Below, piece by piece: positions 7,961-49,539 of a stretch of 64,000 bases of DNA. Source of the stretch: Raillietiella orientalis (Eukaryota); assembly GCA_036172245.1 (NCBI GenBank), contig JAYWIR010000005.1:2542001-2606000 (forward strand), read 5' to 3'. The notes under the pieces were generated by a model, which was not told where the DNA came from, searched no databases, and worked only from the letters and a program-made list of their open reading frames with translations. Each line of letters starts with the position of its first letter. The first letter of the stretch is position 1. The translations under genes and the position numbers were made by a program.

Positions 7961-8123
7961 CTGGACTTTCTGGGGATCACAGGTCGGAGTTTGAGCTCCT
8001 TCCACCAGGCAAGGGGCCTCCGTTGCTAAACTGGAGGATGCAGACGGATTGGCTTAGCCATCCGGAGGCTGCAGAGTATCTCCGCGAACACCTCCAAGGC
8101 TTCGCCAATCAAGAGCTCGCTTC

Positions 8124-17087: not shown

Positions 17088-17300
17088 ACGAGACCGGGAG
17101 ATCGAACGGACCTCGGCTGGACGGATGCTGTGGCGCTGCGGCACCCAAAATCTAGCGGTGTCGCCTTCCTGCTTCGGCCAGCCATCGAGACCGCAGTAAA
17201 GGGCGTACGGTTCGACGATCACGGTCGTGTCGTCCAGCTGATTCTCAGGTGGTCCGACTCCATCGACCTGATCGTCACGAGCGTGTACGCCTCGAGCGGC
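17088..17300 (+). pseudogene. Endonuclease fragment of an F1-like host
   Basis: GVAFLL...FDDHGRV...IDLIVTSVYASSG; similar to 23350-23550. Confidence 0.8.
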
Positions 17301-19340
17301 TTCCTTGGTGAGCGGACGTGTTTTTCCTGCGCTCCGACAGCGAGGTCTAGTGAGTGGTTCTTTCTTGCGCAGTGTCTGCGATTTTCACATTGCCGGTTTC
17401 CAATTGCTACGATGCCAGAGGACACCGCGATGGAAGTAGGCCTGAGGGAGGCAAGTTCGCCCCCACAGCCTACTACATCAGGGGCATCTGCCCCGGAGTC
17501 ATCCCCGGACTCCCCGAGGACATGGAGCGCCATGGTGGCCGCGCCCAGCGCGGAAGCCATGGCGGAGATGGCCGCGTACAAGGCCTCCGGATACAAGCCG
17601 TCGCTTGTGTACCAGGTAGGCAACTTGTTCGACGGCCGGACAGCGCGCGACTTAAGCAAAGCGTTGAAAGACGCGAATGTGATGGAGAAGGATCTGGACG
17701 GCCTCTCCGTCCTCAGCGGCAGGCAGCGTGACGAGGTGGTCTGTAAAGACGTCACCTTGGCTCACCGCCTAATCCATGCACCGCTGAACGTAGACGGCCG
17801 GAAGATCCTGCCGGTGTCAATAGACAGATCCGTGGTGATCCACATGACCGGCATCACCAGCCGCATGACGCGGTCAGCGGTTGGTGAAGAACTTCGCAAG
17901 TTCAGAGAGGTGCACGCACTGTGGCCGAAACCCACCATTCTTGACGGCTTCGATAGCCTTTTTGGTGGTCAGGCTGCAGCGCGGGTCACCGTCAAGGAGA
18001 ATTGTGGGCTTCCCACAAACTACAGGTGGCACAAGAAAACGTCGACCTGTGGTATGTAGGGAAGCTTTGGTATTGCGGGCATTGTAATACCGTGGGACAG
18101 CTACGTAAAAGGTGTCCCAATATACAATGCCATTTGTGCGGGGAGCGGGGCCACGTTCGGCGCGTGTGCCCCAAACGCCCCACCCCAGTTCCCCCTGCCG
18201 CGAAAAAAGCGAAAGGGAAACGCTCGTCAAAGGTCTCTAGACCTAAAGCGGAAAAGGGCCGGCAGAAGCTGACAACACCTCAACCTCCGGCGCAAAAGCC
18301 GGAGGATAAACCTTCCGAAACGGTGGAAAGCGAAGAGGGATCGCAGTTTGTAGAGGCCAGAAAGCCGAAGAAACTCCCACCCGCGGAGAAGAAAGAGCGT
18401 AAGACGGCCGGTAAGTCGAAAAAACCCGGGCCGCGCTCGAAAACTCTGCGGGAGTGCACGGTAGCACTCGAAAGGATTGCCGTTCCCGAGGCTGCCACCC
18501 GGGGCGACGAGCTTCCCCTCGCTGTTTCCGCCGCGCCCGAGGTTCGCGACTGCACACCCTCTATGTACACAGAGGGTGAGCCGCGCGACGCACGAACCGA
18601 CAGCGAGGACGCCGCGTTTGTACAGGCGGCGGAGGAGCTCGCGGCCACGCTGGCCGAGCGTGAGAACCCCTCACGCAAGGCTGTGCGAAGGCCGGCTCCA
18701 GCAAAGAAGGCACCCGCAGTTAAGTGCGACCTGGGGGACGGAAGTTCATCCTTCTCCGCGGAGGCACCCCCAGGAAGTCGGGACGCAAGTCCCAGAAACC
18801 CAAGAGGCGCCTCCCCTCCACCAGCGAGGAGGAGAAGCAGGAAGGCAGCGACTGCATGGGAATCCCGGAGGGAGAACTCCCAAGCTCGGAAGCCGTCGAG
18901 CCGGCCACCCCCATGGAGGAGGGTGAGCAGGGGGATGAAGTCCTCCTTGCAGTCGCCGATCCTGAACAGCCCGCCCCTATGGAGGAGGGCCAACAGGTAG
19001 ACGCGACCCCACCTGCGGGTGACCCGCTCGACGCGCCGTTAACCATGGAGGAGGGGGACCAGGTGCCTTCAGCACCTGACCCTCCTCCTCCACCTTGCGT
19101 CCCGCCCCGGCAGGTGGCGGACGCCGCACTGCCACTTTCCCAGGAGTAAAACCTGGGCTCGCCAGTCGCTGTCGGATCCTCGCGGCCTGTTGGAATCTCA
19201 ACGGGCTGCGCGACGACGGTAACAGGCGAGATACAGTCGACACCCTGTGTGAGCTCGACCTGGCCCTGCTGCAGGAGATCCACGTGATCACCGCGGCAGA
19301 CGTCCAGGACATCGAGACGATCGCGGGGTGTCGGCTGTTT
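17301..19340 (+). mobile_element. F4 LINE 5' part: ORF1 and start of the endonuclease
   Basis: GGACGTGTTTTT at 17314; ORF1 with CHLCGERGHVRRVC; ORF2 start WNLNGL...LQEIH. Confidence 0.87.
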
Positions 19341-22300
19341 ATCACCCGGGTGCGCCGGGGCGTTTATTACAAACTATCCGGGAACAGAGTTCCCGGACAA
19401 AGGGGAAAACAAGATACGAAAAGGGTGGGATCCCCGACACGCAGGTCGGTATGCTGAAAGTCCGGAACGGGAGAAAGGAGACCACAAATACACTACCATA
19501 TAAAATAAAAATAAAAATATAAAGGGCAGGAGACAAGGATCTTTGGTGAGTCCGTTCCTTCCTTTCAAAACCGGCGATGGATGCCGGCGATCTCTCTCCT
19601 TACGTCCTGTGGAAGATGGGCTCACTCGGCAGCCGACGACATGCTTGCGCTGGCTAATCCAATCGGCTGACGAAGGATGGCCAACTACTCCAGTTGTCGG
19701 TGGGCCTTGTCGATGGCGCGAATGCAACACACGGTTGCAACAACAGCACCTGAGGACAGGCCGCCTGGCGTGAAGAAGCGGCGCATCAAATCCCTCGCGG
19801 TTTCCCCCTGGTGCAGGAGAGCTGAGGGCAACCTCAGCCACAGTCCTAGGAGGGCACCGCAGTCCAAGAGCAGGTGCGGGAGCGTTTCCACTTCCCCGCA
19901 CCGCTTACAGTTTGGGGAGACAACTCCCCCGGAAACAAGGTTCGTGCGCTGGTTGGAGTGAAAACCCCAATGCTCTAGCATAATCACGTCTTGCTTCCAC
20001 GAAAGGGGGAACACAGAAGTGTTCAAACACGAGGGAGGGACCACAAGTTCTTCGGGAGGCACACTCAAGTGTTCGCTCCACCGAAGGAGTCCCTTCGGTA
20101 TGTGGCGAGGCGTGGCGGCATCTGCCAGCTCGCAAGTCCTCCAGCCGCCAATAGGTCGCGTTGTTCCTGCAATGGTGCAGGCGACCTCCCATCTCACCGG
20201 ATCGCAGCTGTCATCTCTTCCCCTGAGGGCTGACAGCGCGTCGGCGAGGGGCGTGACGGCCAGTCGAGTCCACTTCTCCTGGCTGTTGCACACTTCATCC
20301 ACCGTGCAGTACGGGGAGAGGTGAGCGCAACGGAGTTCCAAGAGGGTAACATCCTGGTGCTTTGCCCAGCCATGCAACGGTTCCTGCCGCCAGGCTTGAA
20401 AGTTCGTTGGGCGGCAGGAGATAAATTCCTGGGCTTCCAGGAGCCGGTAGAGGAGTTTCCAGGGGAAACCGAAACTTGTCGTGGGGTGCTCCGTGTGCGG
20501 ACGCAGCGACAGAAGTCCGTCGCTGCCGGTGCAGCGCCGCAGGAGCCGGCGCGCAGGAGCGCAACACGGAGTGGACCAAAGGTTGGTGCACAGCGCCAAC
20601 ATTCGAAGCTGCACGTGCAGCTCGATTCTTTCCAGCGTCAGGATGCCTGAACCAGCATCCCGACGCGGAGCCGCCAAGTCTTTCAGGCGGATCCTGGACC
20701 TCACAGGACCCAACAGAGCGTTCCTCAACAGGCTGTGCGCCTGGAGCTTCGCCGAGTAGGGGGGCGGGCAAACAAAAAACAGGGGGCGCAAGAGGGGGGC
20801 AACGAAGGTGTTCCATATCGCGGCCCGCTCCGACAGGAGGAACCTGCCATGCTGGAACCGGCTCAGCGCAATCGTAGCCTTCCGAAGGCACTCCGACCAC
20901 ACTTCTACTGGGCTGATGTTCCCCAGCGGAACGCCCAGATATTGGGTGGACGAAGCGGTCGGGATCCCCAGGCGGATCCAGTCGGACTGCCCCTCCCATG
21001 CCGCACCAATGGGTACGACCACCCTCTTGCTCCTGTTCACGCTCATGCCCGCTTCCCGGTGGATCCGCTCGAAGAAATCCTCGAGACTGGACGCCGGGGT
21101 GGTCATGGGTAAGAGGAGAAGCAGGTCGTCAGCATAGGCCGCCAAGGACGGCGTTCCTGGACAAAGACAATGCCGGTTGGCCAGCGTCAGCCTGTACGCC
21201 CTCTCTACCAACTCAAAGAAGGTGCTGAAGAGAAACGGGCTTAAACTGTCGCCCTGCCTGATGCCCCGCCGCACCGGCACGCCGTACACGTGGCAGCCGC
21301 TGAAAGAGATGGAAATGAGCGCGTGGCACCAGCATGCGCGCAAATACTCCACGAGCTGCACCGGGAGACCGAGACGTTCCAGGAACTTCAGCAGAAGATC
21401 CTGATTTACGCAATCGAACGCCTTATGCGCTCGAGGGCTGACGTCTTTTCTCGGTGCTCCTTGTGCCAGGAATTCTCCCCCAGTGCAAGCGTCGTGTGGT
21501 TTGGTGGTCGATCAGGCAGCGATGCCTGACGAGACCACCAGGGATGGCCAGGGGGCAGCGGCCACGCCGCCCCCAGTGGCAATGGAGAGCCAGGGGACGG
21601 CGGCAACGTCGCTTCCAGAGGCGATGGAGATGGGGGCATCCGCCCCCACAGAATCGGTCCCCGCTGCAGCGCGGGCGTAGAGCGCCATTGTGTCGGCGCC
21701 ATCGCCTGCAGCCGCGACGGAATTGTCGGCCTATGTAGAGGAGGGGTACAACCCCTCATTGTTCTACAAGGTAGGCAACCTTTATTCTTTAGAGAGCGCG
21801 CGAGTCTTTTCGAAGGGTATGCGCGCTCTCGATGTGAAAGAGGAGGAGCTCAACGCTATGACCATCCGCAGCGGGGGTCAGCACGTTGAGGTCATCTGCA
21901 AACAAGCAGAGCTGGCCCAACGACTGCTTAAAACCCCCGTTGTGATGGGGATGCGGAGGCTCCTCCCCACTACGGCGGACCGCAGCATGGTGGTCCACCT
22001 ATTAGGCGTAACCGCGCGAATGCGCAAAGAACAGGTTCGCGCCGCTCTGGAACAGTTCGGAACGGTCCACGCGCAGTGGACGAAAGTTAGTCCTTCCGAG
22101 GACTAAACGGGGCTGCAACAGGGCCTCACGGCTGCGCGCGTGACCGTTCGGGAGGGCTGCCCTCTTCCCCACAAACTGGTTGTCGAAGGCGAAACAGTCG
22201 ACCTCTGGTATGTGGGGAAGCCGAAATACTGCGGCTTCTGCAATACGTCAAGCCACCTCAAAAAGAGGTGTCCCAATGTGCAGTGTTAAGTATGCAGCAC

Positions 22301-25300
22301 AATGGGTCACACGAGGGAGGTGTAACCAAAAGCAGCAGTGCGGGTGGTTTCCAAGAGAATCCTTAAAAAACGCGCCCGGCTTCTGCAGAAAAGGCTGGCG
22401 GCGGAAGCTGCCGCGAAGGCTGTGCCACCCGCGCCCAAGACCTAGGCCGCACCCGAGACCCCGGCGACCAACACCAAAAAGTTGATGGAGCCGGCCAGGA
22501 GACTGGGTGGCAAGTGGCAACGGCCAAAAAATCAAAGAAGGAGAGGAGGATGAAAAAAAAAATCGCCTACCAACAGAAGAAGAAAGAGCAGCGTAGCGCG
22601 ACAATTAAAGAGTGCAGCGTCGACGTCGAACGCGTTCTCGATGTTGCCGAACGCTGCCAGAAAGAACTCGCCGCTATCGACGACCTCCCCTCTGTTGACT
22701 CTGTCAACAACGAGGGGAGCGAGCCGGCGGCGGCGTTCGTCATCGACACCACCATCGATGACGTAGCCTACGCGCGAGCCGCGGAGGAACTGGCTGCCTC
22801 GTTACAGCCAGAACCCTCCAAGGCAGGCAAGGCCGTAAGGCGTCCGGCCTCCCCTGAGCAGTCCCCCACTCCCGACCCCGAGGTGGAGGCCGGAAGCGCA
22901 GCCTCCGTTTCCACGGCACCCCGCAAGAAGCCTGGACGTAAGTCCACAAAGCCGAGGAAGCTCGTCTCCCCCGTCGAAGGGGAAGAGATGGTTTCCGCAA
23001 GCGAGGGTGCCATAAGCGTGGGAAACTCGCGGGACCCGTCGCCCGAGAGACTCCCACGCGCGGACACGAACGGAATGGAGGGGGTGGAGGCCGAACAGGT
23101 GCCTCAGGTGCCTGAGAAGGCCGAAACCCCCATGCATATCCCGCCCGCACGCAAGAGGTGGGCTCCCCCACACCTTAATCTTCCCAGCAGTAATGCCGGG
23201 AATCTCTCGCCGTCGTCTGAGCATCGCCGTTTAGAACGTGAACGGCATGACAGACGCCGCCAGGAGACGAGACATGGCCGCCCTTCTGGAGTCCTACGAC
23301 CTTGCGCTGCTGCAGGTGATCCAGGTGATCTCTGCAGAACAAGCGCAAGATATCGAACGGATCTCCGGAGGGCGGCTATGGTAGAGGTGTGGAAGAGCGA
23401 AAAGTTGCGGTGTCGCGTACTTGCTTCTGCCAGCCATCGAGGCCGCGGCTCTAAGCGTGCAGTTCGACGATCACGGTCGTGTCGGCCAGCTGACTCTCAG
23501 GGGGTCCGACTCGATCGATCTGATCATCACGAACGTGTACGCACCGAGCGGCGCGGACCTGATGAACAGGAGGGCGAGGAAAGAGTTTTTCCTTGCCCTC
23601 CGGCGCGACTGGCTGACCGAAGCAGGCGTGCAGAATGCCCATCTGGTTGCAGGCGATATCAACGTTCCCCTGAAACCAGATGGGCAGAATCCGGAGCGTG
23701 ACCTGGCCAACGAGGTGTGCATGGCGCTGCACACCTGTAATTTGTTGGCCAGTGCACCGGGGATGGAAGACATCATTGACCACGTGTTTCTTGACGAGCA
23801 CCTGTGCCCTCGCGTGGGCAGGCGCTGCAAATTACAATGCGAGCTGTACGACCATCGCCCGATAGACCTCGAGATCTATCCGCGCGACAGGGGCCCCCCC
23901 TCGTTATCGTGGCGTCTCCAAGGGGACTTCCTGAAGCACCAGGACGCGGCGGAACATCTTCGCACGTTCCTACGGAGTTTCAGGCTGCGGACACTCCAGG
24001 ATTGGGACCGCTTCAAGCGGTCGGTCCAGCAGTTCTGCGACCAGTTCCCTCTGCACCGCCTACCTACGGGTTTTCGGACCGGGGTCCGTAACGAACTAGC
24101 CTACCTGCAGGTCCGTTGTTACTCCAGGACCCCCGACATCCGCAGGCTGACAGAATACAAAGCGGGAGCCGAGAGGCAAGCCTGGCAGTCCGGATCGGCC
24201 AGCTTACTGGACGATCAGGGCCAGGAGCACTCGGCACTCGCCCAAATCCGCGGCCTGCTGCGGAGTTTCTACTCCTCTTTGTATGCCAGGGCACCTCCGG
24301 AGAGAAACGTCTCACGACTCCTACTTCCGGAAGGCGCTCTAGCGATCGGCGAGGAGGAGAGAAAAACCCTCGACGAGCCTTTCACGATGGACAAGATCCT
24401 CTTTGCCATCGGAAAGCTCAAGAGGCGCAAGGCTCCAGGGGAAGACGGCCTGCCCGCGGAGTTTTACCGAACTCTCGCGGCTGAGCTTACCCTTCTGGTA
24501 CAGCAACTCACCTTGCTGATTCGCGAGACAGGTGACGTTCCCGCATCGTTTCGTTCGGCAAAGCTGCGGCTCCACCCTAAGGGAGGAGATCTAAGGAGCA
24601 TGAACAACTGGCGTCCCATCACAATAGTGAATGCGGACGACAAGTTGCTAGCTAAGGTTTGGGCAGAGAGGTTGAGACGGGTTGCCAACAACTTCATCTG
24701 CTCGGAACAGACATATGCTGTTTCCGGGCGAAGCAACGAGGCGAACCTGTTCCACGCTTCCACCTGGCTAGAACTCCAACATCAGAGGAGCTTGGTGTGT
24801 AGCCGGAATTCCGGTGCGTGCGCCGGCAAGGGGTCGGATGGTCGGGTGGGGGAGGGAGCCCTTGCGGTCGCAATCGACTTGCGGAAAGCATTCGATTGCG
24901 TCGACCAGAATCTCCTTCTGGAGCTTCTGGAACGCTTGGGCTTCCCGGCCTCATTAGTAAGCTATCTGCGCTCCTGCGGGCGCGACGCGCTCATCAACGT
25001 TACTTTCAGCGGGCAGACCGTGCACGGCGTGCAGGTGCGGCGTGGGATCCGGTAGGGAGACAGCCTGAGCCCCTTGCTCTTCAGTACGTACTTTGAGTTG
25101 GTACTGAGAGCGTACAGGGGAACTCTAGCGCACCTTCCGCACGAATGTGCCGGTACGCCAGCCGTTTTAGCGTACGCGGACAACCTGCTGCTGCTCCCTA
25201 TGTCCACCCCGGCTGCGGCGATCGAGGAGTTCTTCGACCTTCTGCATCGGGGAACCGGACTTACGGTGACCAGGGCGAAGTCGTCAGTGATGCAAGTTGG

Positions 25301-27477
25301 TGCGGCGTGGGCAGGGCAGCAGGACTGGGTCCGTTTGGGGTTCCTCACGGTGAGGTACTTCAAGTACCTTGGTGTGCCCTTGGGAAAATACTCTCCTACG
25401 GAAGCGTGTTCCGGCTGCCTCCTAAAAGAAGAGACGGCGATCGGCCCGTTCCGAGGCGGCAGGTTTTTCCTGCCTGAATGGGCCGTGGTTTGAAACGTTC
25501 GCGGCTCCTCTCCTCCGCCCCCTGCTTTTTGTTTGCTCCCCCACAGAGAGAATTAAGAAACAGACGAACGACCTCCTCCGTATCGCCCTTTGGGGCAACA
25601 AGAGGGCCCGAGTCCGCTTAAAGGACTTGTGCGCTCCTCGTCGGGACGGTGGTCTGGGCCTCCTGACGCTGGAGCGGCTGGAGCTTCAGCTCCAGTTATG
25701 ATTGTCGGCACTTGTTCTAGAGCTGTGGTGCACATGTTGGTACGTCCCTGCACGTCTCCTTCTCCAGCAAGCCACCGGCAAGACGCGACTGACGTCGTTT
25801 CTTGCACTCCGTCGCCGCGTCAGCCGATGCGGACTTCAGCTACGGAGGGTGGCGGCGCTGTCACGGAAAAACCCAGGATTAGTCACCTGTCGCCCTTTGA
25901 ACGGTAGTGCCTGGTTGCAGGAAACCGTTCGAACGTGGGGACAGTTCGGCATGCAACCCTCCCAACAGGAACGAAGGTTCCTGTTTGGGGGTTACAGAAG
26001 TTGCACGCTCCGCAAGCTCCTGGAGGATCCAAAGAAGAGAGCGTGGGCAGGAAGAACCCCCCTCGCTGCTGCGCTGCCCTCCCTGATGGAAGATCTGGAC
26101 CGCGATGTTGCGGCGAAGTGGGAGGTTACAGTAACAATCTCCGGAAAGGAGAAGAAATAGGAGAGTGGAAGACGGGCTAGTTAACAGACGCTGCGACCTC
26201 GAGTACGTCTCTCCATGGACTTCTTCGCTGGGGCGTGCTTCTCGACGTTCCCATTGAACGTTTGAAGTGGCCCTTGGTACTAATGAACACCTCCACCCTC
26301 CCCTTAAAATGGCAGGAGTCGGCATTCCTGTTGCAGCACTGGGGACTCCCCTGCAACGCCCGCCGACACCACTGGACATGGTGAGCGGTGGACCCCAATT
26401 GCGTCCGGTGTGGGGAACGTGATTCCCTCCCCCACCTGCTAGTGGATTATGTTGCCCTTCGGACCCTTTAATTTCGCTTCGATGCGGCCATAGGCATCCC
26501 CTGCGGCAACCTCAGGGACGTTCTTAAAGCCCTCTTCGTTGCCGACGCCCTTCGGCCAGCGGCCTCGTTAGCAGCCCTGAGCTGTCTTCGCGGGATCGTC
26601 GCCGCCAGGAGTAAGGCTACGGGAGAACCACACGACAAGGGTGGCATCCAGCCAGCCTCCCAGTTCCTGAGGAGGGCGTCCCGATGGCCCCACCTGGATC
26701 CAGGAATACAGAAGGAGCTTGCCGGCATCCTGCAAAGGATCCAAGGGCCCCAACAGCAACTGTAATCCCTTCCCTTACCCTCCCAACTTTTCTTTTCTTT
26801 TTTTGTTTTGATTTTGTTTTTCCCCCTTTCTCCTGCTGCCGTGGTGGACCGTACCAGTCTGCGAACCGCTGACCCGGCAGGCTCCCTTGTTTCTTCGTGA
26901 GTGGCTGGAGCAATGGTCCATCCACTGCACGTCTTTGTAAAGGTTTATTAAACAATAAACGCCCCGGCGAAATCCGGGTGAAAATCGAACGCCTTGCGGA
27001 GATCGACCGCAACCGCCAAGGCACCCGGCGCTTCCTCAGGCAGAATGCAGCGACGCCTAGCCCTGGCAGCCGCAGATGCGGTTGCCTGGCTGTCGTGCGC
27101 CACGCGACGTTGCAGCTGGAGCCACGTGCGCGCGAAGAACAGGTTCGCCTCCATGGCCCTCCCGGGAACACTGCAAGTCTGCTCCGGACATACCACGGAT
27201 CCAGCGATCCAAACTAGGCGTGCGACCCAGAGCATGGAGAACAACTTGACGTCCGCATTCACCGAGGTGATGGGACGCCAGTTGCTTAAATGGCGCATGT
27301 CTCCGCCTTTCGGCAAGAGACGCACCCTTGCTGAGCGAAACGAGGCCGGGACATTGCCCGTCTCTCGCATCAACCCAGAAAGCCTCAGAACCAGGGGGAT
27401 GAGTTCCGCCGCGAAGCACTGGAAGAACTCCGCAGGCAGACCATCCTCATCTGGCGCCTTGCACTTCTTGAGGCTCC
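19339..27477 (-). mobile_element. F2 LINE (RT to 3' end), split at HKAFD by the 21428-26982 insertion
   Basis: 26983-27477 encodes RT up to DLRKAFD. 19685-21427 continues HKAFDCVNQ, QGDSLSP, YADD and CKRCGEVETLPHLLLDC. Terminal hairpin at 19342-19368. Confidence 0.9.
21428..26982 (+). mobile_element. Full-length F1 LINE (~5.55 kb) with 16-bp TSD, decayed
   Basis: TSD aatcgaacgccttatg (21412-21427) / aatcgaacgccttgcg (26983-26998). ORF1 ~21522-23193; ORF2 from TAATG 23191 (EN, RT); AATAAA at 26954 plus hairpin. Confidence 0.92.
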
Positions 27478-27619
27478 GCTATGCCGGAGTTTTGCCGCCG
27501 TTGCTAAGGCAGCGGCTGCCCACGGAGCCCCACCCGACGAGGCAGAGCTGCGGGCGTACGCCGCTAGCGGCTACAATCCCCCTCTGGCCTACAAGGTCAG
27601 TGCTGCGTACCGGGATGGG

Positions 27620-34204: not shown

Positions 34205-36926
34205 GCGGCCGAAGTTCGCCGCCTCCTAAAGCGCTACTACTCCTCGTTGTACGCGGAGGAGCCCACGGAACGCAGTCTCTCCGAGCTGCTTCTTCCGACG
34301 GGTAACCCTGCTATCGACGAGGAGGAACGCGCCAGATTGGATTGACCATTCACGGCTGAAGAAGTATCTTCTGCCATAGCGGGCCCGAAGAGGCGTAAGG
34401 CGCCTGGGGAGGATGGCCTGCCCGCGGAGTTCTTTCAGTGCTTCGCGGCGGAGCTCGTCCCCCTGTTGCTAAGCCTTTCCTCGCTGATGCGTGAGACGGG
34501 AGATGTTCCCGCTTCTTTCCGCTCAGCAAAGGTGCGGCTCCTGCCGAAAGGCGGTGATTTGCGCCACCTCAGCAACTGGCGTCCGATCACCTTGGTGAAT
34601 TCGGACGTCAAGTTGTTCTCCAGGCTATGGGTCGCGCGCCTGGGGAGAATCGCGAAGTCCTTGGTAAGTCCGGAGCAGACGTATGCTGTTCCGGGGCGGT
34701 CCATGGACGCGAATCTCTTCTTCGCGCGAACATGGCTCAAGTTGCAGCAGCGCGTGGCGCAGCAGAGCCAGGCAGCCGAAATCGCCGCTGCCAAAGGTAA
34801 GCGGCGGTGTTCAAGGCATGATGGAACGCCGGGAGCCTTAGCGGTAGCCGTCGATCTCTGCAAAGCGTTCGACAGCGTAAACCAGGACCTCCTTCTGGAG
34901 CTTCTGGAACGCCTGGGCCTCCCGACGCACTTCATCGCCTACTTGCGCTCCTGCTGGCGCCACGCGTTATGCTGTATCTCTTTCAGCGGGCGCCACGTGT
35001 ATGGCATTCCCATACGGCTGGGTATCAGGCAGGGAGACAGCTTAAGCCCCCTGCTCTTCAGCATCTTCTTTGAGTTGGTGCTGAGGGCGTACAGGCTGAC
35101 GCTGGCCAACCTGCCGAGCTCCTGCCCGGGAACACCGGCCGTGGCCGCTTATGCTGACAACCTTCTCCTGCTGCTGCCCATGTCCACCCCGGCGTCCAGG
35201 CTCGAGGACTTCTTCGAGCTCATTCGTCGGGCAGCGGGCCTGAGCGTCAACAGGACGAAATCAACCGTTGTACCGGTTGGCTCTACGTGGGAGGGGCAGT
35301 CCTACTGGATCCGCCTGGGGATCCCACGGGCAGGTGCTTGAAGTACCTCGGCGTTCCCTTGTGCGCCTTCTGTCCAGCAGAAGCGTGGTCGGACTGCCTT
35401 CACAAGGCCGAGACTGCTTTTGGCCCGTTCCAAGGCGGCAGGTTTCTCCTGTGGGAACGGGCCTTCGTGTGGAACATTTTCGTTGTCCCCCTCCTCCGTC
35501 CCCTCTTTTTTGTTTGTCCCCCTCCCTACTCGGCTAAGCGCCGGGCGCAACGCCTGTTGCGTAACGCCCTGTGGGGACCGGCGAGATCCAGGATACGCCT
35601 GAAGGACTTGGCGGCTCCTCGGCGGGATGCAGTATTGGGCATCCTGACGCTGGAGCGGATCGGACTGCTAGTGCAGTTCCGCATGCTGGCACTTTGCGCG
35701 CAGCTCTGGACCACTCCCTAGTGTGCTCTAGCGCCGCTGCTGCTGCGGCGCTGCACGAGTGGCGACGGACTACGTTCGTTGCATCTGCTCACGGAGGGCG
35801 CCCAGAGAGGATTCGGCTTCCCTTTGAAGCAGCTCGCCACGCTTCTAGGAAAGCATGAGTGGATCTCCTGCCGGCCGACGAACTTCAACGCCTGGAGGCA
35901 GGAAGCCTTATCGCCCTGGGCAGCGCAACAGGATGTGTCCCGTTTGGAACTCCGTTGCGTGAACCTTTCCTCATACTGTCCAGTGGGTTAGGTGGTGGAA
36001 GACCAGGACCAGTGGACACGCCTAGCCGCTACGCCACTCGCCGAAGCACTGTGTGCACTGATGGTGCGAGATGACAGTGACCTGCCGGCGAGGTGGGAGA
36101 TCGCTTGCGAAATCGCAGGCGAAACCCGACTGCTGGGCGTCTGGCGGACTTGCGAAGTGGCAGACGCTGTCACACCTCGCCTCCGTACCAAGGGACTTCT
36201 TCTGTGGAGTTAGCTCCTCGGGGTACCCACCGATGAACTTGTGGTCCCTTCTGCGTGTTTGGACGCGACTCTCTTTCCCCTTCGGTGGAAACAGGACGCT
36301 TTTCTGCTGGTGCATTGGGGTTTGTACTGCAACCAGCGGGCGCACCTGATTTCCAGGGGAGTTGCTTCCCCGAACTGTGCCCAATGCGGAGCGGTGGAAT
36401 CGCTTCCGCATTTGCTGTTTGAGTGCGGTGCCCTCCAGGATCTGTGGCGACGGCTGTCTTCAGCGCTCCTGCACCCCGGACACACCGCATTCGATTGGAT
36501 GCGCCGCTTCTACACGCGTGGCGGTCTTTCTCTTGGAGCGCTCGTCGCAATCATCTGCTGCGTCCGCGCCATTGTCAGGGCCCGCCACGTATTGCAGATG
36601 CGAGCAGTCCCAACTTCGGTCCCCGACACCGCAGCCTGCAACCTGCAAATGGCTGCCGGGTGGCCACACCTGGGAGCAGAAGTGAGGACGGAGATCGGCA
36701 GCATTCACCGCCGGTTCTGAGAACAGGAACGGTTAGACTGTATACCCCTATCCCCGCCCTCCCACCCAATTTATTTATTTATTGTCCCACCCCCTCCCGT
36801 TCCGAAATCTCAGTGTACCCGGCCTGCGTTCCGGGAAATCTACTCCCCATTTTCTGTTCCCCTTGCCTGGGAACACAGTTCCCAGTTGATATTAAGAATA
36901 AACGTTTCGGCGCAACCGGGTAATAA

Positions 36927-38137
36927 ACGACAACGCTGCATTCTTTAATTTGCTCGCTTGTCTGCTGTTTTTTCTGGCGGTACGCGAGCTTTTTCTCCAT
37001 CCTCCTCTCCTTCTTTGATTCTTTGGCCGTAGCCACCTGCCACCCAGGCTCCTGGCTAGTTCCCTCGACTTTTTCGGCGTTGTTCGCCGGGGTCTCGGGT
37101 GAGGCCTGGGCCTTGGGCGCGGGTGGCACAGACTTCGCGGCAGCTTTCGCCGCCAGCCTTTTCTGCAGAAGCCGGGCTCGTTTTTTAAGGTTTCTCTTGG
37201 AAACCACCCGCACTGCTGCTTTAGGGCACACCTCCCTCGTGTGTCCCATGGTTCCGCATACTTGGCTCTGCACATTGGGACACCTCTTTTTGAGGTAGCC
37301 CGACATATTGCAGAAGCCGCAGTATTTCGGCTTCCCCACATACCACAGGTCGACTGTTTCGCCTTCGACAACCAGTTTGTGGGGAAGAGGGCAGCCCTCC
37401 CGAACGGTCACGCGCGCAGCCGTGAGGCCGTGTTGCAGCCCCGTGTAGTCCTCGAAAGGACTAACTTTCGTCCACTGCGCGTGGACCGTTCCAAATTGTT
37501 CTAGAGCGGCGCGAACCTGTTCTTTGCGCATTCGCGCGGTTACGCCTAATAGGTGGACCACCATGCTGCGGTCCGCCTTAGTGGGGAGGAGCCTGCGCGT
37601 TCCCATCACAACGGGGGTTTTAAGCAGTCGTTGGGCCAGCTCTGCTTGTTTGCAGATGACCTCAACGTACTGACCCCCGCTGCGGATGGTCATAGCGCTG
37701 AGCTCCTCCTCTTTCACATCGAGAGCGCGCATGCCCTTCGAAAAGGAGTGCGCGCTCTCTAAAGAATAAAGGGGTACAACCCCTCATTGCCTACCTTGTA
37801 GAACAATGAGGGGTTGTACCCCTCCTCTACATAGGCCGACAATTCCGCCGCGGCTGCAGGCGATGGCGCCGACACAACGGCGCTCCACGCCCGCGCTGCA
37901 GCGGGGACCGATTCTGTGGGGGCGGATGCCCCCACCTCCATCGCCTCTTAGGGCGACGTTGCCGCCACCCCCTGGCTCTCCATCGCCTCTGGGGGCGGCG
38001 TTTCCGCTGCCCCCTGGCCATCCGTGGTGGTCGCGTTAGGCATCGCTGTTTGATCGACCACCGAACCACAGGACGCTTGCACTGGGGGAGACTTCCTGGC
38101 ACAAGGAGCACCGAGAAAACACGTCCGCCCTAGAGCG
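36927..38137 (-). mobile_element. F1 LINE 5' end and ORF1 N-half
   Basis: Reverse complement of 21428-22625; starts cgctctagggcggacgtg. Confidence 0.9.
37770..37823. repeat. Perfect 20-bp inverted repeat with 14-nt spacer
   Basis: aggggtacaacccctcattg (37770-37789) and caatgaggggttgtacccct (37804-37823). Confidence 0.9.
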
Positions 38138-40240
38138 CACAAGGCGGTCGACTGTGTAGACCAGGAACTCCTCTTGGATCTTCTGGGTCGCATGGGCTTC
38201 CCAACCTCCCTGATCACCTACCTGCGCTCTTGCTGGCGGAACGTGATGATCACCATCTTTTTCAGTAGACAAAAGGTGTAAGGCGTGCCGATACGGCGGG
38301 GCATAAGGCAGGGAAATACCCTCAGCCCCCTGCTCTTCAGCACCTACTTTGAGTTGATGCTGAGAGCGTACAGGGTGACGTTGGCTCCCTTGCCGAGCTC
38401 GTGCCCCGGCGCGCTTGCCGTAGTAGCGTATGCCGACGATCTTCTGCTCTTGTTGCCGATGTCCACCCCGGCAGCGGCATTCGAGGACTTCTTCGATCTG
38501 GTTAGCCGTGGGGCCGGGCTACTGGTAAACAGGGCGAAGTCGTCGGTGGTGCCAGTAGGTGTGGCGTGGGCAGGGCAGTAGGACTGGGTCCGTCTGGGGA
38601 TCCCTACGGCGAGGTGTTTCAAGTCCCTTGGTGTGCCGTTGGGGGACTACTCCCCTGCGGAAGCGTGGTCCAGCTGCCGCCAAAAAGTAGAGACGGCTAT
38701 CGGTTTGTTCCTCGAAGGCAAGTTTCACTTGCCGGAACGGGCCGCGGTGTGGAACGCCTCCGCGGCTTCCATCCTTCGCCCCTTGCTTTTGTTTGCCCCC
38801 TACTGTAGAATCGAAGAAGAGGACAAAGGACCTCCTCCGCATCGCCCTTTGGGGCAAGGGGAGGCCCCGAGTCCCTTTGAAGGACCTTTGCGCTCCTCGT
38901 CGGGACGGCGGACTTAGCCTCCTGACGCTGAAACGCGTGGAGAAACAGCTACGATGCGCACCCTCGCCATCGCAGCGAAGCTATGGAGCACCCCTTGGTG
39001 CACTCCGGCTTGCTTCCTGGCCAGCCGTGTGTCCCGGTGCAATGGACTGGCGTCTTTTCTTTTGAGCCGTTGCCGGAAGATGCGAAGATGCGGCCTACTG
39101 CTCGGGCGCATTGCAATTCTGGCCAGAAAGAACAGTTGGATGGTTTGCTGCCCCGCCAACTCCCCCGCCTGGCTGGAGGAGAACATTGGAACGTGGGCAG
39201 TCGTAAACCAGAGGAGCCACGAGACGTGGAATCGTCTCTGATGCAGCCCATACGCCCGCTGCACGCTGCAGAATCTCCTGGAGTGTCCAGCAAGAAGCAC
39301 GTGGGCAGAGACGACCTGCCTGGCTACGGTGCTGCCCTTCCTGAGGAGGGCGCTTCACAGCAGCAGGACGCCAAGGTGGCAAGTCTCCTGCTGCATCGAG
39401 GGACGGGAGAAGTTGATTAGCGGCTGGACAACGGGAGAACTGGCAGACGCCACGACCCCGAGCGTCCAGCCGCGAGGATTAGCAAGATGGTGCGAGCTGC
39501 TCGTCATCCCCAGGGAAGAGCTGAAGTGGCACCCGGTGATTAAAGAATCCAGGATCCTGCCACTCAAGTGGCAAAAGTCGGCGTTGCTCCTGTTGCACTG
39601 GGGTCTACCCAGCAACGCATGCCGCTTCCACTGGACGAAGGGAGCTGTGGATCCTGCGTGTGCCAGGTGCGGGAAGCGGGAGTCGCTCCCCTACCTTATT
39701 GTGGACTATGCTGCCCTCTTACCCCTCTGGGAACGGTTCGGGACGACCCACGGGCTCCCTACGGGCAGCGCCCCCAGAGACGTTCTGCCTCTCCTCTTCG
39801 TGCGGGACGCTCTGCAGCCAGCCGCAGCCCTCGCAGCCCTGTGCTGCGTCCGAGGCATCGTGGCGGCCTGGAGCGACGCCAACAGCGAAGACCGCGACAC
39901 GAACGAGAGGGAAGTCATCCCGTATGCTGTCAGCTTTATGCGGAGAGCTGCTCGATGGCCCCACCTGGGAAATATGCGGACAGACCTCGAGGGCTTCCTT
40001 CGACGGATGGGCCCTCCTCACAGCGTCCAGTGATCCCTTCCCTTCCCTCCAAACTCTTTTCGTTTGTTTATCCCTTTTATTTTTCTTTTTGTTTTTCCCC
40101 CATCCCCTTGCGCTGCTGAGGAGTGCCACGCCGGGCTGCGTCCCGGTGTCCCGACAGGTCCCGTGTCCAAGGCCGCAGTGGGGCCTTATACCACGTATGT
40201 GAGTTTTTCAAATAAACGCCCCGGGCGTACCCGGGTGATA
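38138..40240 (+). mobile_element. LINE 3' half from RT HKAVD to 3' terminus (possibly the 3' end of the F4 element starting at 17301)
   Basis: QGNTLSP, YADD, CARCGKRESLPY; AATAAA at 40211 plus hairpin. Candidate TSD acgcctcgagcggc (17287-17300) / acgccccaagcggc (40241-40254). Confidence 0.82.
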
Positions 40241-40373
40241 ACGCCCCAAGCGGCGCGGATCTGACGACCAGAAGGGCGAGGAGAGAGTTTTTCCTTGCCC
40301 TCCGGCGCGACTGGCTGACCGTGGTAGGCCTGTGGAATGCCCATCTGGTCGCAGGCGATTTTAACGTTCGCTT
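40241..40373 (+). pseudogene. F1-like endonuclease fragment (APSGADL...AHLVAGDFNV); host of the tandem F3 insertions, resumes at 61297
   Basis: Colinear with 23540-23670; the continuation QPDGRDHER at 61315 matches KPDGQNPER at 23675. Confidence 0.85.
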
Positions 40374-43300
40374 TCATGAGAGACGGACGAGATTTCGTAT
40401 CGCTGCTTTGATCCGCTGTTTGGCTGTGTATGTGCGTCCCACTGCATATCCCTAAGAATGAGCAGTGAACAACGCAACGTGGAAGACCTAGAGCCTGTGG
40501 TTCAGAAACTTCCCGCAGCTGGAGCGATTGCCACAACCTGTGCGAGCCCCGCGCCACCGGCCAGGAGCTTCGCGGACGTGGCCACATCTGCGGCCGTGCA
40601 AGAATGCCTCCCTGACCAGGCGGAGTTGCAGGCATATGTAGTCCAGGGTTACAAATCTGCTCTCCGTTACAATGTAAGTGGGGTAGGCAAGGCTGGAGAG
40701 GAGTTCGCGGACGAACTTTTCCGCGTGGGAGTGCAGGAGGAGGACCTCATAGCACTCATGCCTGTTCCAGCATTGGGCTATGTCAAGGTCCGATGCAAGC
40801 AGGCTTCACTTGTGCAGCGGCTCCTTCGCACTCATTTGTCCATTTGCGGGAAAAAAGTTTTTCCCTCCGCGATGGACGAGTCTTTTGTCGTTGTTCTCTC
40901 GGACATAGAGCCGGAGATCCACGACAAACAGTTGAAGGATGCGTTGGTGAAATTTGCCTCCGTTCATGCGGTGTGGAGGAAGTGGAGTTACTACAGGAAA
41001 TTCCCTTCCGTCCACACAGGATTTGCTGCGGTTAGGATAACCGTTCCTAACCGCCGCACGCTGCCTGCCACGCTACAGGTCAACGGCACAGTCGTTCACC
41101 TGTGGTTTGTTGGCAAAACTCGCGCATGCGAGCAATGCGGCAAAGAAGGGCATTGGGGCAAAGAATGCCCTTCACCGAAGTGCCGCTATTGTAAGGAGTC
41201 CGGGCACAAAATAAGGAAGTGCGCGGACATTAAGAAAAAAAAGGAGGCTGCTAGACTCCGGCGTGCCAAAGAGTGCGCAGAGGAGAAAACAGCATCCTCT
41301 AAAAAACAGGGAGGCTCGCGAAACGCCGAAAATAAAAAGGCGCGAGCGCGGTCTCAAAGTCGGCTCCCTCAGTTTCAAAGCCTTAAAAGGGCAATCGCGT
41401 GGCAGGGAAGCCTATTAAAAAAGGACGAGAGGGCTCCGCGCGTACCGTCACTGACCCCGTAGCTGAGTTCGAAAATACTGCTCGCGGAATGGGGTCAGTA
41501 AAACCAGTCGAACCGTGCGACAGCGAGAAAGGAGGACGCGCGAATGAAAATTGCGCGGTAACAGTCTCCTTGAGACCTCTGTCCATTTCGGAGGCTTCAG
41601 TAGGAAACCTCACGAAGGCGGTTGGTCGTCTGACGACAAAAGCCGGTGAGAGCAGCGGTGCGTTGCTTGAAAACACGCCACAGCCAGCTGCATCCTCCCC
41701 AACGAGGCAGTCGCGGAGGAGTCTCCCGACTGCCGCAGAGGCTGCGCCATCGCAGCCTTTTAAGGGCGCAGCGAAAGCCGCGCCCGAGGCGGTTGGGGAG
41801 GAAAGCCCGGAGGAGTTCCTGACGAACATCACGGAACGCCCCGAGGAAACGGAAGGAGCGTGGACGGTGGTGGAAAAAGGGAGGAACGTGAAGTCTCCCA
41901 AAAATTCTCCACAACCTCCATCCAAGAGCCTTTGCAAGGCACGGACAGCAGCGCGTTAAAGAAAACTCGCGCGAAGGTTTCCTCTGCCATTGCAAAAGAT
42001 ACCGCAGCGACTGCTCATAGCGAGAAAGCCGCGATCGCCGGGAGCGATGCCACGGTGACCGCGAAAAGCAAGTGTCCGCTGTCTCATCTGTGAGAACTTC
42101 CGAATCGACACGGCAGGCGAGTCGCGAAGCGCCCGCGCTTCAATCAGTCTCAGAGACGGAGTCTGGTATCACCGCCGAACGTCGGATCACCCGCGGAAGC
42201 CGTAACGCGCCGGGCTAAGGCCCTGAGGTGCGCAGCGCAGGCCGCGAAGGAGCGAGAGCTCACCCAGGAGAGCCAAACGACGTTACCCGCAGACGAGCAC
42301 TCGATTTCGTGCAGTACCATGGAGGACGGTGGCGACTGTGATCTCCAGCCAGCAGTGCTGCATACTGTCCGCTCGCCGGTGCGAGCGGGCAAAAAACCGC
42401 CGACTTCCCAGCATTAATGCGGGGAAGAGCTTCTTCTCTTCGCCTGTCCGTCGCGAGTTGGAACGTGAACGGACTGCAGAACGACGAGAAGAGGCGAATA
42501 GTAGCCAACGCCCTGCACCCCTTCGACCTCGTGCTTCTGCAGGAGATTCACGTAATCTCCGACGAGCAGGCAGCCAAAATCGAGGAGCGTGCCGGCCGAA
42601 CGCTACTTTCGCTGTGAGGCGACGCACACATGTGCGGCGTCGCGTTCCTCGCAAGAGGAAAAATGGCGGAAGCGGTGCGTGGTGTTCGTTTCGACGACGA
42701 CGACGGACGGGTAGGCCAACTTGTTGTCAAGTGGTCCGAGTCCATTGATCTCGTCGTGACGAACATCTACGCGCCTAGTGGCTATCGCTACCTCGAAGAT
42801 AGAATTGCGCTCTTCGAGGAAGTGAAATGCCGCTGGCTCAACAACTCCAGCTTCCAAGTGGCGCACCTCGTCGCAGGGGACTTCAACGTCCACCTGCTCT
42901 CTGACGATTGGAACTGCCCGAGGGAGCGAACGTCGGCCATCGAGATGTGCGCGTCAGTACGCGCTCTCAATTTGATGGTCGGCGTACCAGAGATGGAAAC
43001 TTCGCCGGATCACATCTTCCTCGATGATAACCTGCACCACCGTGTGGGAAGGACAGGAAGATTGCCGTCCGGACTTTCTGACCATCACTGGTTTGAGTTC
43101 GAGCTCTTTCCGCCAGGCAAGGGGCCTTCGTTGAAAAACTGGAGGATGCCGGCGGACTGGCTTAGCCATCCGGAGGCGGCGGATCATCTCCGTCAGTACC
43201 TCCGGACCTTCGTCATCCGCGAACTCGCGGACTAGGATCATTTAAAGATATCAGTCCGCGAGTTCTGCGAACGGTTTCCCTTGCACCGGCTTCCGCGAGG

Positions 43301-46300
43301 CTTTGGAGAAGGCGTCGCCAATAGCAGGACTTGCCTGCAGGCGCGCACCTTTTCCAGACGCGCTGATGTCAGCCGGCTTGCGGATTACAAGGCGAGAGCC
43401 GACCGTCAGGTCTGGCAGTCTGGACTATCTTGCTTAATCGACGAAAGAGGCCTGGAGTGCTTGACGCCAGCCGATATTCGCCGCATTGTAAAAAGTTATT
43501 ACTCCTCGCTATACGCGGAAGCACCTACGGAAAGTCTCTTTTCGGAAATACTACTTTCCCAGGATGCTCCCGTTGTTAGCGAAGAGAAACGCTCACATCT
43601 CCACGAGTCCTTCACGGCGGAGGAAACTTCCTCCACCATCGCAAAGCTCAAGAGACGAAAAGCGCCAGGCGAGGATGGGCTGCCCGCGGAGTTTTATCAG
43701 TGCTTCGCGGAGGAGCACGTCCCCCTGGTGCTTCGCCTCTCGTCGCTGATGAGGGTTTCGGGGATGTCCCCAATTCCTACCGCTCAGCGAGGGTGCGTCT
43801 CCTGCCGAAAGGTGGAGACGCACGCCATCTGAACAGCTGGCGCCCGCTCACCTTGGTGAACTCGGACGTCAAGTTGTTCACCAAGCTGTGGGTTGCACGG
43901 CTAGGGAGAATCGCGCAGTCCTTGGTAAGCGCGGAGCAGACTTACGCTGTTTTCGGGCGGTCCATGGACGTGGACCTCCTGTTGACCCGCACCTGGATGC
44001 AGCTGCAGGAAGGCGTAGCGCAGCAAAGTCGATCCGTGAAAAATGCCGCTGCCAAAGGCTCACGGTATCGAAAGAAGCGGCAGGAGGGTACGCCGAGTGC
44101 ATTGGCGGTCGCAGTCGACCTCCACAAGGCGTTCGATTGCGTGAACCAAGGACTCCTATTGGAGCTTTTGGAAAGCCTGGGTCTCCCGGCGCAACTCCTG
44201 AAGTATTTGCGCGCATGCTGGCGCCACGCGCTAACCTGCATTTCTTTTAGCGGCTGCCACGTGTACGGTATTCCCATACGCAGGGGCATCAGGCAGGGTG
44301 ATACTTTAAGCCCGTTGCTCTTCAGCATCTTCTTTGAGTTGGTGCTGAGGGCGTACAGGCTGACTCTGGAGTACCTGCCTAGCTCTTTCCCGCAAACTCC
44401 TGCCGTGGCTGCCTCTGCAGATGACCCACTTCTTCTACTCCCAAAGTCCACCGCAGCGTCCAGTGTCGAAGATTTCTTTGACCTGATTCGTCGGGGAGCA
44501 GGCGTGAGGGTGAACAGAAAAAAGAGCGTAGTCGTTCCTGTAGGAGCGTCGTAGGAGGGGCAGTCCGACTGGATCCGCCTAAGAATCCCCACGGCAGGGT
44601 ACTTCAAGTACCTAGGCGTTCCGTTGGGCGAACTCGGCGCTGCCGAGGCGTGGTCGGACTGCCTTCATAAGGCTGAGCTGGCCACCAGCCCGTTCATTAA
44701 CGGTAAGTTTACCTTGCCGAAACGAGCGGCTAGTTGGACGACCTCCGTGGCCCCCCTCCTCCGACCCCTGGTTTTTGCCTTGGACGCGCTCAATGAGCGG
44801 GCAAGACGTGTGCTAAGGAACGCTCTCTGGGTTCCGGCGCGATCCAGGATCCGTCTGAAAGACCTCACTGCTCCACGTCGGGATGCTGGGCTTGGCATTC
44901 TTACGATGGAGAGAATCGGACTGCAAGTGCAGTTCCGGATGCTCGCACTGTGTGCCGAGCTATGGACTTCTACCCTGTGTGCGCCTGCGCGCATCCTTCT
45001 AAGGAGGTGTACAGGCAGTGAAGGACTTTTTTCGTTGGTGCCTGGCTTGCGCCACAGGAAATAGGGATTTGGCTATCCCTTGAGGAAAATCGCCACCCTA
45101 TTGGAAGCCAATACGATGATTTCCTGCCTCCCAATGAACTTCAATGCTTGGCAGCAGGAATCTTTTGATTCTTGGGATGCATTCCTAGATATGAGCCGCA
45201 AAGATCTTCGGCCCATGCGTCAATTTTAACCTTGACCACTCCAAGATGTGATGCAAGACGTGGTGAAGTTTGCCTTTCTGACTGCCACGCCCCTCGCCGA
45301 AGCACCCTCTTCCCTCGAGGCTAGAGAAGACAGTAGCCAACCGGCGATGTGAGAGTTCTCTTGCATCATCGCAGGAAGAACGAAACTCCTCGGCGAATGG
45401 GACACGAGCGAGCTGGCGAATGCCGCCACTCCTCGTGCTACATCAAAGTGACAACTTCGGTGGGGAGGAGCTCTTCGGGTTGCCCCCGAGGAACTGATAG
45501 TCCCTCCCGCTGTTTGGACGGTTCGGTGTTTCCCCTTGCATGGAAGCTAGACGTTCTGCTTTTTTTGCACTGGGGTTTCCGCTACAACGAGCGGCGCCAC
45601 GGAGTTTCCGGTGGGATGGCTTCTCCATACTGTGCCCGGTGCGGGGCTACGGAGTCGTTCCCGCACCTTGTTATGGACTGCGGCACCCTCCAGGAACTCT
45701 GGCGAAGGTTAGCAGCAGCTCTCCTGCCACTGGGGGACGCAGCCCGAGAAGTGCTGCGACGTTTCTTCTAACCGCGAGGACTTTCGAGGGCTGCGATGAT
45801 TTCCACAGTTTGTTGCATCCACGCCATGGTCACGGTCCGAGACGTGCTGGAGAACACGGATCAGCAATGTTGTGTCACCAGAAAGGCAGCCGACTTAATC
45901 AGGGTGGCAGCTGCGTGGCGAAAATTGAGTGAAGACGCTACGGAGGAGCTAACTGGCATCCATCGCCGGATGCGAAACAATTCCGAACGACGTACCCTGT
46001 GATCCTGTCGAATTTCCTTCAAACTATCTTTTTGTTGTCTTGTTCCTCCTCCCAGTCGTTCCCTGGTGCTTTGGTGCTTGAACTCTGTTTTTCCCGGTGA
46101 CTGCGGAGCGTCACCAAAGTTCCCTGTCCCATTCCTCCCATTCAGACTTTTCTTTTTTGTTTGTAGTCCCCTCTCCCCCCATTTGCTTAGGTCCTTCCGT
46201 TTTCCTGGCCTGCGTGTCAGTTGTGAATCTCCGTTGTTTTTGTAGTCGTTGGCTGGAAACTACTGTTTCCAGCTAGTTTATATTAATAAACGTCCCGGCG

Positions 46301-46314
46301 TGACCGGGTAAGAA
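40374..46314 (+). mobile_element. Full-length F3 LINE copy 1 (~5.9 kb) with 16-bp TSD, decayed
   Basis: TSD attttaacgttcgctt (40358-40373) / attttaacgttctctt (46315-46330). ORF1 from 40458 (CEQCGKEGHWGKEC, CRYCKESGHKIRKC); TAATG at 42415; EN, RT; AATAAA at 46285 plus hairpin. Confidence 0.92.
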
Positions 46315-46341
46315 ATTTTAACGTTCTCTTTCATGGGAGAT

Positions 46342-46348
46342 GGACGTG
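46342..46348 (+). promoter_or_regulatory. DPE-like GGACGTG motif near LINE 5' ends (representative; variants at 4276, 5277, 17080-, 17314, 21439, 38126-, 40385)
   Basis: Conserved across F1, F3 and F4 5' ends that are otherwise dissimilar; fits the DPE consensus RGWYV. Function is inferred. Confidence 0.55.
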
Positions 46349-49300: not shown

Positions 49301-49539
49301 CGCATACGCCAGGTGCGTAAACCTGTCGTCGTCAAGGCGTATTCCTTGGATACGTCTGCCATGGTGGACCAGTGACGAAACCGCTTCCATATAAACTACG
49401 AACAGCATCGGACTAAGGGCGTCTCCCTGACGGATTCCCCTTTTCATCCTGATGTCTGTCGTATGATTTCCGTTGATTCTTATTTTGCAGTACTCCCCTT
49501 CGAGATTCTTCCATACGTAGTCAGCGAAGTATTCTGGGT

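Follow-up and report, generated by a model that had tools for sequence, protein, structure and literature searches.

We analyzed a 64-kb window of the Raillietiella orientalis genome (contig JAYWIR010000005.1, positions 2,542,001 to 2,606,000; all coordinates below count from the first base of this stretch). Decayed non-LTR (non-long terminal repeat) retrotransposons on both strands make up nearly the whole of it, and their nested insertions are dense. Several of these long interspersed nuclear elements (LINEs) open with a conserved block whose first five bases, (G/T)GACG, resemble a downstream promoter element (DPE), and several are inserted at fixed codons of other LINE copies. The original prediction held that the motif lies at +28 from the first duplicated base of the target, that transcripts start in the target, and that the target sequence they carry guides later insertions to the same site. 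We find that the +28 observation is accurate but over-counted and its +1 ambiguous; it rests on two independent measurements and is not established. The locus is probably best explained by a conserved 5′ block joined to a lineage-specific leader, with site specificity driven by the endonuclease and mismatches between duplication copies that reflect age.

A nest of L1/Tx1-like LINEs

G+C content ranges from 50 to 63% across the window, CpG observed/expected is 0.96, and in self-comparison the copies are related at 64–96% identity. Pfam searches of the longer open reading frames (ORFs) returned RVT_1, zf-RVT, Exo_endo_phos and zf-CCHC. The elements have the domain composition of a target-specific LINE of the apurinic/apyrimidinic endonuclease (APE) type: an ORF1 with a CCHC motif, and an ORF2 with an APE endonuclease, a reverse transcriptase (RT) and a C-terminal zinc-binding domain. 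In protein searches the closest relative was a single unnamed metagenome protein (P0024, 68% identity); the remaining matches were L1-type at 22–34% identity, the named ones from HMMER being plant L1-type at 23–34%. A protein-atlas look-up led to a cluster named Transposon TX1, which we treat as a lead only. By sequence, we class the elements as L1/Tx1-like LINEs, with a putative Tx1 kinship. Searches of the whole window yielded no Rfam match at gathering thresholds, ribozymes included, and no tRNA call by ARAGORN.

All lineages share one 3′ end. At 13 places it reads AATAAA(C/T)GCCCCGGCG-loop-CCGGGTGA-A (for example at 26954–26982, 46285–46314 and, on the minus strand, 19338–19368), a hairpin with a 5-bp CCCGG/CCGGG stem and a loop of 4–6 nt, followed by a short TGA-A tail without a long poly(A). 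Each of the five pairs is kept in 10–12 of the 13 copies, with little covariation. The hairpin pattern had no match in a genome contig scan and none in a viral contig scan.

The 5′ end is conserved as well. Eight element 5′ ends carry the terminal block GGACGTGTTTTTC, often preceded by GAGNGC: six on the plus strand (4276, 5277, 17314, 21439, 40385 and 46342) and two on the minus strand (17080 and 38126). Set against the 13 3′ ends, this tally means that the 5′ end is complete in many copies. The motif (G/T)GACG is the opening of the block and occurs 334 times in the 128,000 strand positions of the window; its presence at element starts is not due to chance, because it is part of a homologous 5′-terminal block. 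From these alignments, the block is an inheritance of several related L1/Tx1-like lineages. A metagenome scan for the block with a downstream CGCTC returned 53 loci, none of them window-like by blastn and one with a weak tblastx match, and we regard these as chance matches.

Recurrent insertion into catalytic-motif codons

Four points in host LINE coding sequence were each hit by two independent insertions, with orientation fixed at every point. Three of them fall in the most conserved motifs of the host proteins: AGDFN and NVYAPSG in the endonuclease and KAFD in the RT. Site A, in the AGDFN codons, was used by lineages Y and W (40351–40376 and 5255–5269); site B, in the KAFD codons, by copies X1 and X2 (21412–21427 and 38138–38153); site C, in the NVYAPSG codons, holds the 5′ junction of Z1 and the 3′ junction of H2 (17283–17300 and 40241–40256); and site E received M1 and M2 (32277–32287 and 56535–56548). 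The same position and orientation in a repeated target, with target duplications, is the recurrence expected of a Tx1-like target-specific LINE.

At site B, X1 (21428–26982, plus strand) is a full-length, decayed LINE that lies antisense in a host RT, inside the (DL)xKAFD codons. Its block, TGACGTCT, begins at 21439, and its 3′ hairpin and tail reach 26982. The left target duplication (21412–21427) is antisense to the host KAFD codons, and the right one (26983–26998) runs on into host H1, a minus-oriented RT. The two copies, AATCGAACGCCTTATG on the left and AATCGAACGCCTTGCG on the right, have 13 nt in common and differ in the last 3 nt (ATG versus GCG). X2 (36928–38137, minus strand) belongs to this lineage too but comprises only the 5′-most 1.2 kb, with block GGACGTGT from 38126; it is interrupted at 36927, where the 3′ end of another element cuts in. 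It adjoins the same host position in H2 (38138–40241, plus strand), a copy that extends from site B to its own 3′ end and there adjoins site C of host X4. The window holds no right-hand duplication for X2.

X1 and X2 are 92.2% identical, whereas their host flanks are only 66.7% identical. Lineage X thus entered this site twice, independently, and the leader TGCGCTC(G/T)AGGGC that the two copies have in common was inherited; in X1 the inherited leader measures 11–14 nt. The 5′ junctions of X1 and X2 are identical. The left copy of X2 shares a variant with K1, the nearest relative of its host, which fits a local origin. A further copy, X3 (1–1962, plus strand), consists of a 3′ part (1–1946) and a site B right duplication (1947–1962); it is probably a segmental duplicate of X1 together with its host, because its element and its flank resemble those of X1 to nearly the same degree (88.3% and 90.8% identity, respectively). 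The possibility that H1 is the 3′ half of X2 was ruled out, as H1 and X1 share only 66% identity across the RT.

At site A, two units of lineage Y stand head to tail in a single host copy, X4. Y1 (40377–46314, plus strand) is full length and has a leader of 8 nt, TGAGAGAC, before its block at 40385, as well as the 3′ hairpin and an intact ORF1 of 334 aa with a CCHC knuckle; Y2 (46334–61296, plus strand) is the second unit. Three copies of a 19-nt duplication accompany the pair: a left copy in the AGDFN codons of the X4 endonuclease (40358–40376), a middle copy common to both units (46315–46333), and a right copy (61297–61315) that runs on into host X4 (61297–64000). X4 sequence continues upstream of the first copy and downstream of the third. 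Because the host flanks only these outer copies, 40358 and 46315 represent one locus and not two observations. T17 is common to the two left copies, and A10 is confined to the right one; set against a related host copy, these differences resolve into one change per side, the result expected of ordinary decay.

Identity between Y1 and Y2 is uneven along their length: it starts at 84% across the opening 1.35 kb, rises to 91% in the middle part and to 96% in the 2.5 kb that follow, and falls to 83% in the final 0.29 kb, a pattern that suggests gene conversion or a mosaic history. Y2 is interrupted by ~7.1 kb of other LINEs (47665–54791), by M2 (~56545–57586) and by a poly(A) retroposon of ~960 bp (60059–61016). 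The last of these, a minus-strand insertion in the Y2 3′ untranslated region, has an A12 tail and a GGTTCGAAT box near its 5′ end and looks like a retroposon of the short interspersed nuclear element type, moved by a poly(A)-type LINE.

The other insertion at site A belongs to a different lineage. W (5277–10553, plus strand, with a nested minus-strand element at ~8120–9746) occupies the same AGDFN codons in a different host, H5, and is ~65% identical to Y in ORF1. The inserters' own versions of their target codons were also compared with the occupied ones. At site A, the copies within Y and W (42873, 55940 and 7766) read GGGGACTTCAAC, against GG(C/A)GATTT(T/C)AA in the occupied targets; at site B, the copies within lineage X (24885 and 62525) read AAAGCATTC, against AAGGCG(T/G)TC. 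The differences are synonymous at both sites and, in these few cases, may reflect self-avoidance.

At site C, Z1 (17314–19337, plus strand) runs from the 5′ block to the middle of the endonuclease, where the 3′ end of H1 cuts it at 19338. Homology of its host to other endonuclease copies extends as far as 17300, inside the NVYA(P/S)SG codons. The 3′ tail of H2 is joined to the same site C position in X4, at 40241/40242, which supports a nick at 17287 or 17288 for Z1. The 27 nt before Z1 (17287–17313) comprise host site C in its VYASSG codons (17287–17300) and 13 nt of uncertain origin (17301–17313). These 13 nt match, at 11 of 13 positions, the FFGE codons at 7703–7715, 27 nt further along the endonuclease of W, and may be host sequence that has undergone a 27–33-nt deletion, a 5′-transduced flank, or a leader.

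Two other 5′ ends lie nearby. Z2 (4276–5040, end approximate, plus strand) is the 5′ part of a second Z-lineage copy, and GGACG marks the exact point at which it becomes homologous to Z1. Over the 27 nt before that point the sequence is colinear, in antisense, with coding sequence of host K1 (VRNERAYLYARHYSRTP), and nothing therefore appears to have been carried at the 5′ end of Z2; this colinearity also led us to reject a Z1-like leader with an 8-nt deletion. Element V (15751–17080, start approximate, minus strand), absent from the original list of 5′ ends, is likewise a 5′ part, with block AGACGTGT at 17080. A common insertion site for V and H1 was considered and ruled out, their junctions being ~50 nt apart in host coordinates.

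At site E, both insertions lack their 5′ ends. M1 (32287–34205, end approximate, minus strand, with its 3′ end at 32287) and M2 (from ~56545, minus strand) have junctions no more than 2 nt apart in host coordinates, in two different hosts. Site reuse therefore happens without the element 5′ end and needs no memory carried there.

Orientation relative to the host bears on a further explanation. R2 elements are co-transcribed with 28S rRNA, and the target sequence they carry helps 5′ joining; they encode a restriction-like endonuclease and use a self-cleaving ribozyme. R2 supplies the concept behind the original prediction, in which an RNA 5′ end homologous to the target would give precise 5′ junctions. 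By analogy, sense insertions could be co-transcribed from the host LINE promoter and processed near the block, the sequence upstream of it being read-through. Y, W, Z1 and H2 do share the orientation of their hosts. However, half of the window insertions (X1, X2, X3, M1 and M2) are antisense, the hosts are broken and decayed copies, and the Rfam search that covered the window contained no ribozyme match at gathering thresholds. We consider such co-transcription and processing very improbable.

Several other features complete the nest. A second LINE family of lower G+C (about 50–53%) is present at 10554–15750 (plus strand) and 47665–49538 (minus strand); it has its own CCHC ORF1, endonuclease and RT and aligns only distantly with the main lineages. 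An 876-codon stop-to-stop frame at 26982–29612 (plus strand) spans at least two junctions, joining an antisense piece of host RT, a short ORF1-like piece and then a 5′-truncated RT, and is not one gene. Some nest junctions, such as those at 2188/2191 and 27473–27717, are more complex than plain insertion.

Spacing between target and block

The coordinates behind the +28 proposal are exact. With the first duplicated A as +1, the A at 21412 is paired with TGACG at 21439, and those at 40358, 46315 and 17287 with GGACG at 40385, 46342 and 17314; on the minus strand, an A at 38153 within ACAGTC is paired with GGACG at 38126. What did not stand is their count as separate cases. The five are not five trials, because the motif belongs to a homologous block; moreover, 40358 and 46315 belong to the tandem pair, and 21412 and 38153 to one lineage at one site.

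Right-hand duplications were found only for X1 (26983–26998) and Y1/Y2 (46315–46333 and 61297–61315). The spacing, which is the sum of duplication and leader, is directly measurable in these two lineages only, as 13+14 (or 16+11) in X and 19+8 in Y. Z1 agrees by proxy (14+13), if its 13 nt of uncertain origin count as leader. The 14-bp target duplication proposed at 17287 does coincide with host site C (17287–17300), but a search of the window for its right-hand copy returned one match, itself. The remaining three of the eight block-bearing ends are off the rule or cannot be measured. In W the block begins 15 nt past the A that matches the +1 of Y, placing the motif at +16 if the nick position is taken from Y; Z2 abuts host coding sequence; and V is the third. 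The first two, at 5277 and 4276, had already been set apart as exceptions.

Even where it can be measured, +1 is ambiguous by 1–3 nt, because the 3′ tails end in A beside targets that start with A (GGGTGAA joined to AATCG, GGGTAAGAA to ATTTT and GGGTGATA to ACGCC). By a rough estimate, for a pattern that was itself found post hoc, the probability that two or three such sums coincide by chance lies between a few percent and about 10%, and the equal sums in the two directly measured lineages are most likely a coincidence. We also considered whether the X and Y leaders could be decayed target sequence from beyond the duplication. In five local-alignment tests, 52, 474, 1288, 1200 and 1164 of 2000 shuffles reached the observed score; the best of these (52/2000) is not significant after five tests, and we rejected this origin.

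Earlier work gives the consensus of the Drosophila Doc, F, G, I and jockey LINEs as RGWCGTKY, that is (A/G)G(A/T)CGT(G/T)(C/T), at about +29 to +36 (PMC1636488), and reports DPE-type elements in SART1, TRAS1 and the Trypanosoma cruzi element L1Tc (PMC4748587). Five of the eight window ends (Z1, Z2, W, X2 and V) match this Drosophila-derived consensus at all eight positions, as GGACGTGT or AGACGTGT; Y2 matches at seven, and X1 (TGACGTCT) and Y1 (GGACGAGA) at six. Such a match is not rare, occurring 53 times on both strands of the window, and we put the chance of one within a 30-nt region at ~1%.

Initiator matches at the predicted +1 are weak. The initiator TCAKTY, sought 27 nt upstream of the motif at all eight ends, scores 5 of 6 in X2, 4 of 6 in X1, Y1, Y2 and V, 3 of 6 in W and Z2, and 2 of 6 in Z1, with no consistent initiator among them. 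Inherited sequence upstream of the motif amounts to 0 nt in Z, 8 nt in Y and 11–14 nt in X, and a start inside the element at the required distance is not seen. With inherited leaders of at most 14 nt, a block that acts at +28 would require a start in the flank, and in this respect the logic of the original prediction is coherent.

These features set the window elements beside and apart from the known DPE-bearing LINEs. Like the jockey, Doc, F, G and I promoters, most of their 5′ ends hold the 8-nt consensus in full, and the motif is placed at the 5′ end of a non-LTR element; in the fly LINEs, transcription begins within the element, at an internal initiator that precedes the motif by ~28 nt (PMC1636488, PMC4748587), in contrast to the short inherited leaders seen here. 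In T. cruzi, the Pr77 promoter of L1Tc occupies 77 nt from the first base of the element and has a CGTG DPE at +28 to +32 (PMC4748587). It is an example of a DPE-type element driving a LINE outside animals, and its CGTG core also occurs in the window block, but the two have no sequence relation.

Explanations and wider meaning

The explanation we favor, and consider probable, separates the 5′ and 3′ steps of insertion. Lineage-specific endonucleases would nick fixed positions in conserved codon motifs of other LINE copies, so building the nest, and site reuse would follow from this specificity at the 3′ step. The apparent +28 would then result from adding two lengths, that of a duplication characteristic of the site and that of a short leader, specific to the lineage and part of the element RNA. 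In an ordinary target-primed model that RNA would begin at the leader or the block and not in the duplication, and the block could serve as a promoter element or a 5′-end signal. The sequence shows the anatomy of the nest, its recurrent sites, the conserved block and the lack of independence among the five cases; the RNA start and the role of the block are inferred. Mismatches between duplication copies would come from element age: copy divergence of 4–16% predicts 1–3 mismatches per pair of 16–19 nt, so that carried target sequence, the source first proposed for them, is not needed. The 1–2 mismatches cited in the original prediction are the number that 8–16% divergence among copies would give.

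Three observations weigh against this explanation. X and Y use different sites and have duplications of unequal length, and yet both reach a total of 27; Z1 joins them if its 13 nt are leader. The block matches the Drosophila LINE DPE consensus at 8/8 positions in 5/8 ends and yet lies too near the element boundary for an internal start at +28. Lastly, the three element-side bases of the X1 left duplication (ATG) are nearer to those of X2 (GTG) than to those of its own right copy (GCG), the resemblance expected if left copies were carried from parent to offspring. This pattern is explained equally well by a 13-nt duplication and a 14-nt leader as by a carried leader, and in Y the left/right differences come down to a single change on each side.

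In the original prediction, the block instead sets initiation ~27 nt upstream, at the first duplicated base; the RNA carries target and leader, pairing of its cDNA with the staggered target makes the 5′ junction seamless, and leader length is matched to that of the duplication. The spacing in X, Y and possibly Z1, the consensus matches, and the identical 5′ junctions of the independent insertions X1 and X2 are what this would produce. DPE-type elements function in LINEs of insects and in L1Tc of T. cruzi (PMC4748587), and flank transcription with homology-assisted 5′ joining has been proposed for R2 and Tx1-mobilized elements (PMC4494074). On the other side stand the small number of directly measured lineages with their ambiguous +1, the position of W at +16, and the colinear host coding sequence upstream of Z2, which shows no carried leader. 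Initiator scores are 2, 4, 4, 4 and 5 of 6 in the five +28 cases and 3–4 of 6 at the other three ends, single mutations on each side account for the left/right differences, and the truncated M1 and M2 reuse their site without a 5′ memory. Hence we judge this account unlikely as a whole; transcription starting in the target is, at the level of sequence, neither refuted nor supported, and we give it a similarly low standing.

A more specific form can be stated for the GGACGTGT element, and we consider it doubtful. Pol II would start ~27 nt upstream, on the first duplicated base, so that the cDNA end would be complementary to the target and the junction would need only ligation, with the leader tuned in each lineage (13+14, 19+8 and perhaps 14+13). 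If true, promoter and integration geometry would have co-evolved in LINEs that parasitize the catalytic-motif codons of other LINEs.

A constant distance could also arise with no start in the target, if the block were a 5′-end signal in RNA or cDNA by which element proteins fix, with reference to the first nick, the point where reverse transcription stops. The block is kept across lineages whose ORF1 regions are only ~65% identical, the conserved 3′ hairpin, of the stringent type, suggests sequence-specific RNA recognition, and the ratio of 5′ to 3′ ends attests many full-length copies. However, W and Z2 break the constant distance, and we know of no 5′-end ruler of this kind in APE-type LINEs, which counts further against it; we think such a ruler quite improbable.

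We return to the favored explanation, of endonucleases that nick conserved codons, whose parts have known counterparts. Fixed-site insertion into transposons is already known from the Tx1 clade, and nested clusters of L1-type LINEs from Zepp and ZeppL. In the literature on the Tx1 clade, Tx1 inserts into Tx1D, Tx1-Mar occupies two positions in Mariner-N4_AMi, both fixed in place and orientation, other members target LTR elements and Harbinger transposons, and possible transcription from the flanking target is discussed for Tx1-mobilized elements (PMC4494074). The window elements are like these in being APE-type LINEs with a CCHC ORF1 that insert at a fixed position and orientation inside other transposons. 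They differ in their targets, which are the catalytic-motif codons of related LINEs (AGDFN, NVYAPSG and KAFD), and in that several lineages, each with its own site, meet in one nest.

Zepp and ZeppL of green algae form clusters of nested L1-type LINEs that target existing copies (PMC3446292, PMC8226300). The window is likewise a dense, GC-rich cluster of nested L1-type elements inserted into existing copies, a likeness by description only. The algal copies are described as mostly 5′-truncated 3′ ends, whereas the window holds many full-length copies and insertions at defined codons. Among the literature searched, in the portions that the sources made available, we found no case in which LINE lineages are each directed at one defined set of catalytic-motif codons in other LINEs and no DPE-consensus block at the very 5′ boundary of an element; the original Zepp papers may describe either.

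The precise, full-length 5′ junctions of site-specific LINEs are only partly understood outside R2, and a start on the first duplicated base, if true, would be a simple and testable mechanism for them. If codon targeting holds genome-wide, the LINEs of this window would be a clear case of transposons specialized on transposons, and such targeting could explain the growth of nested LINE clusters such as those of the Zepp type.

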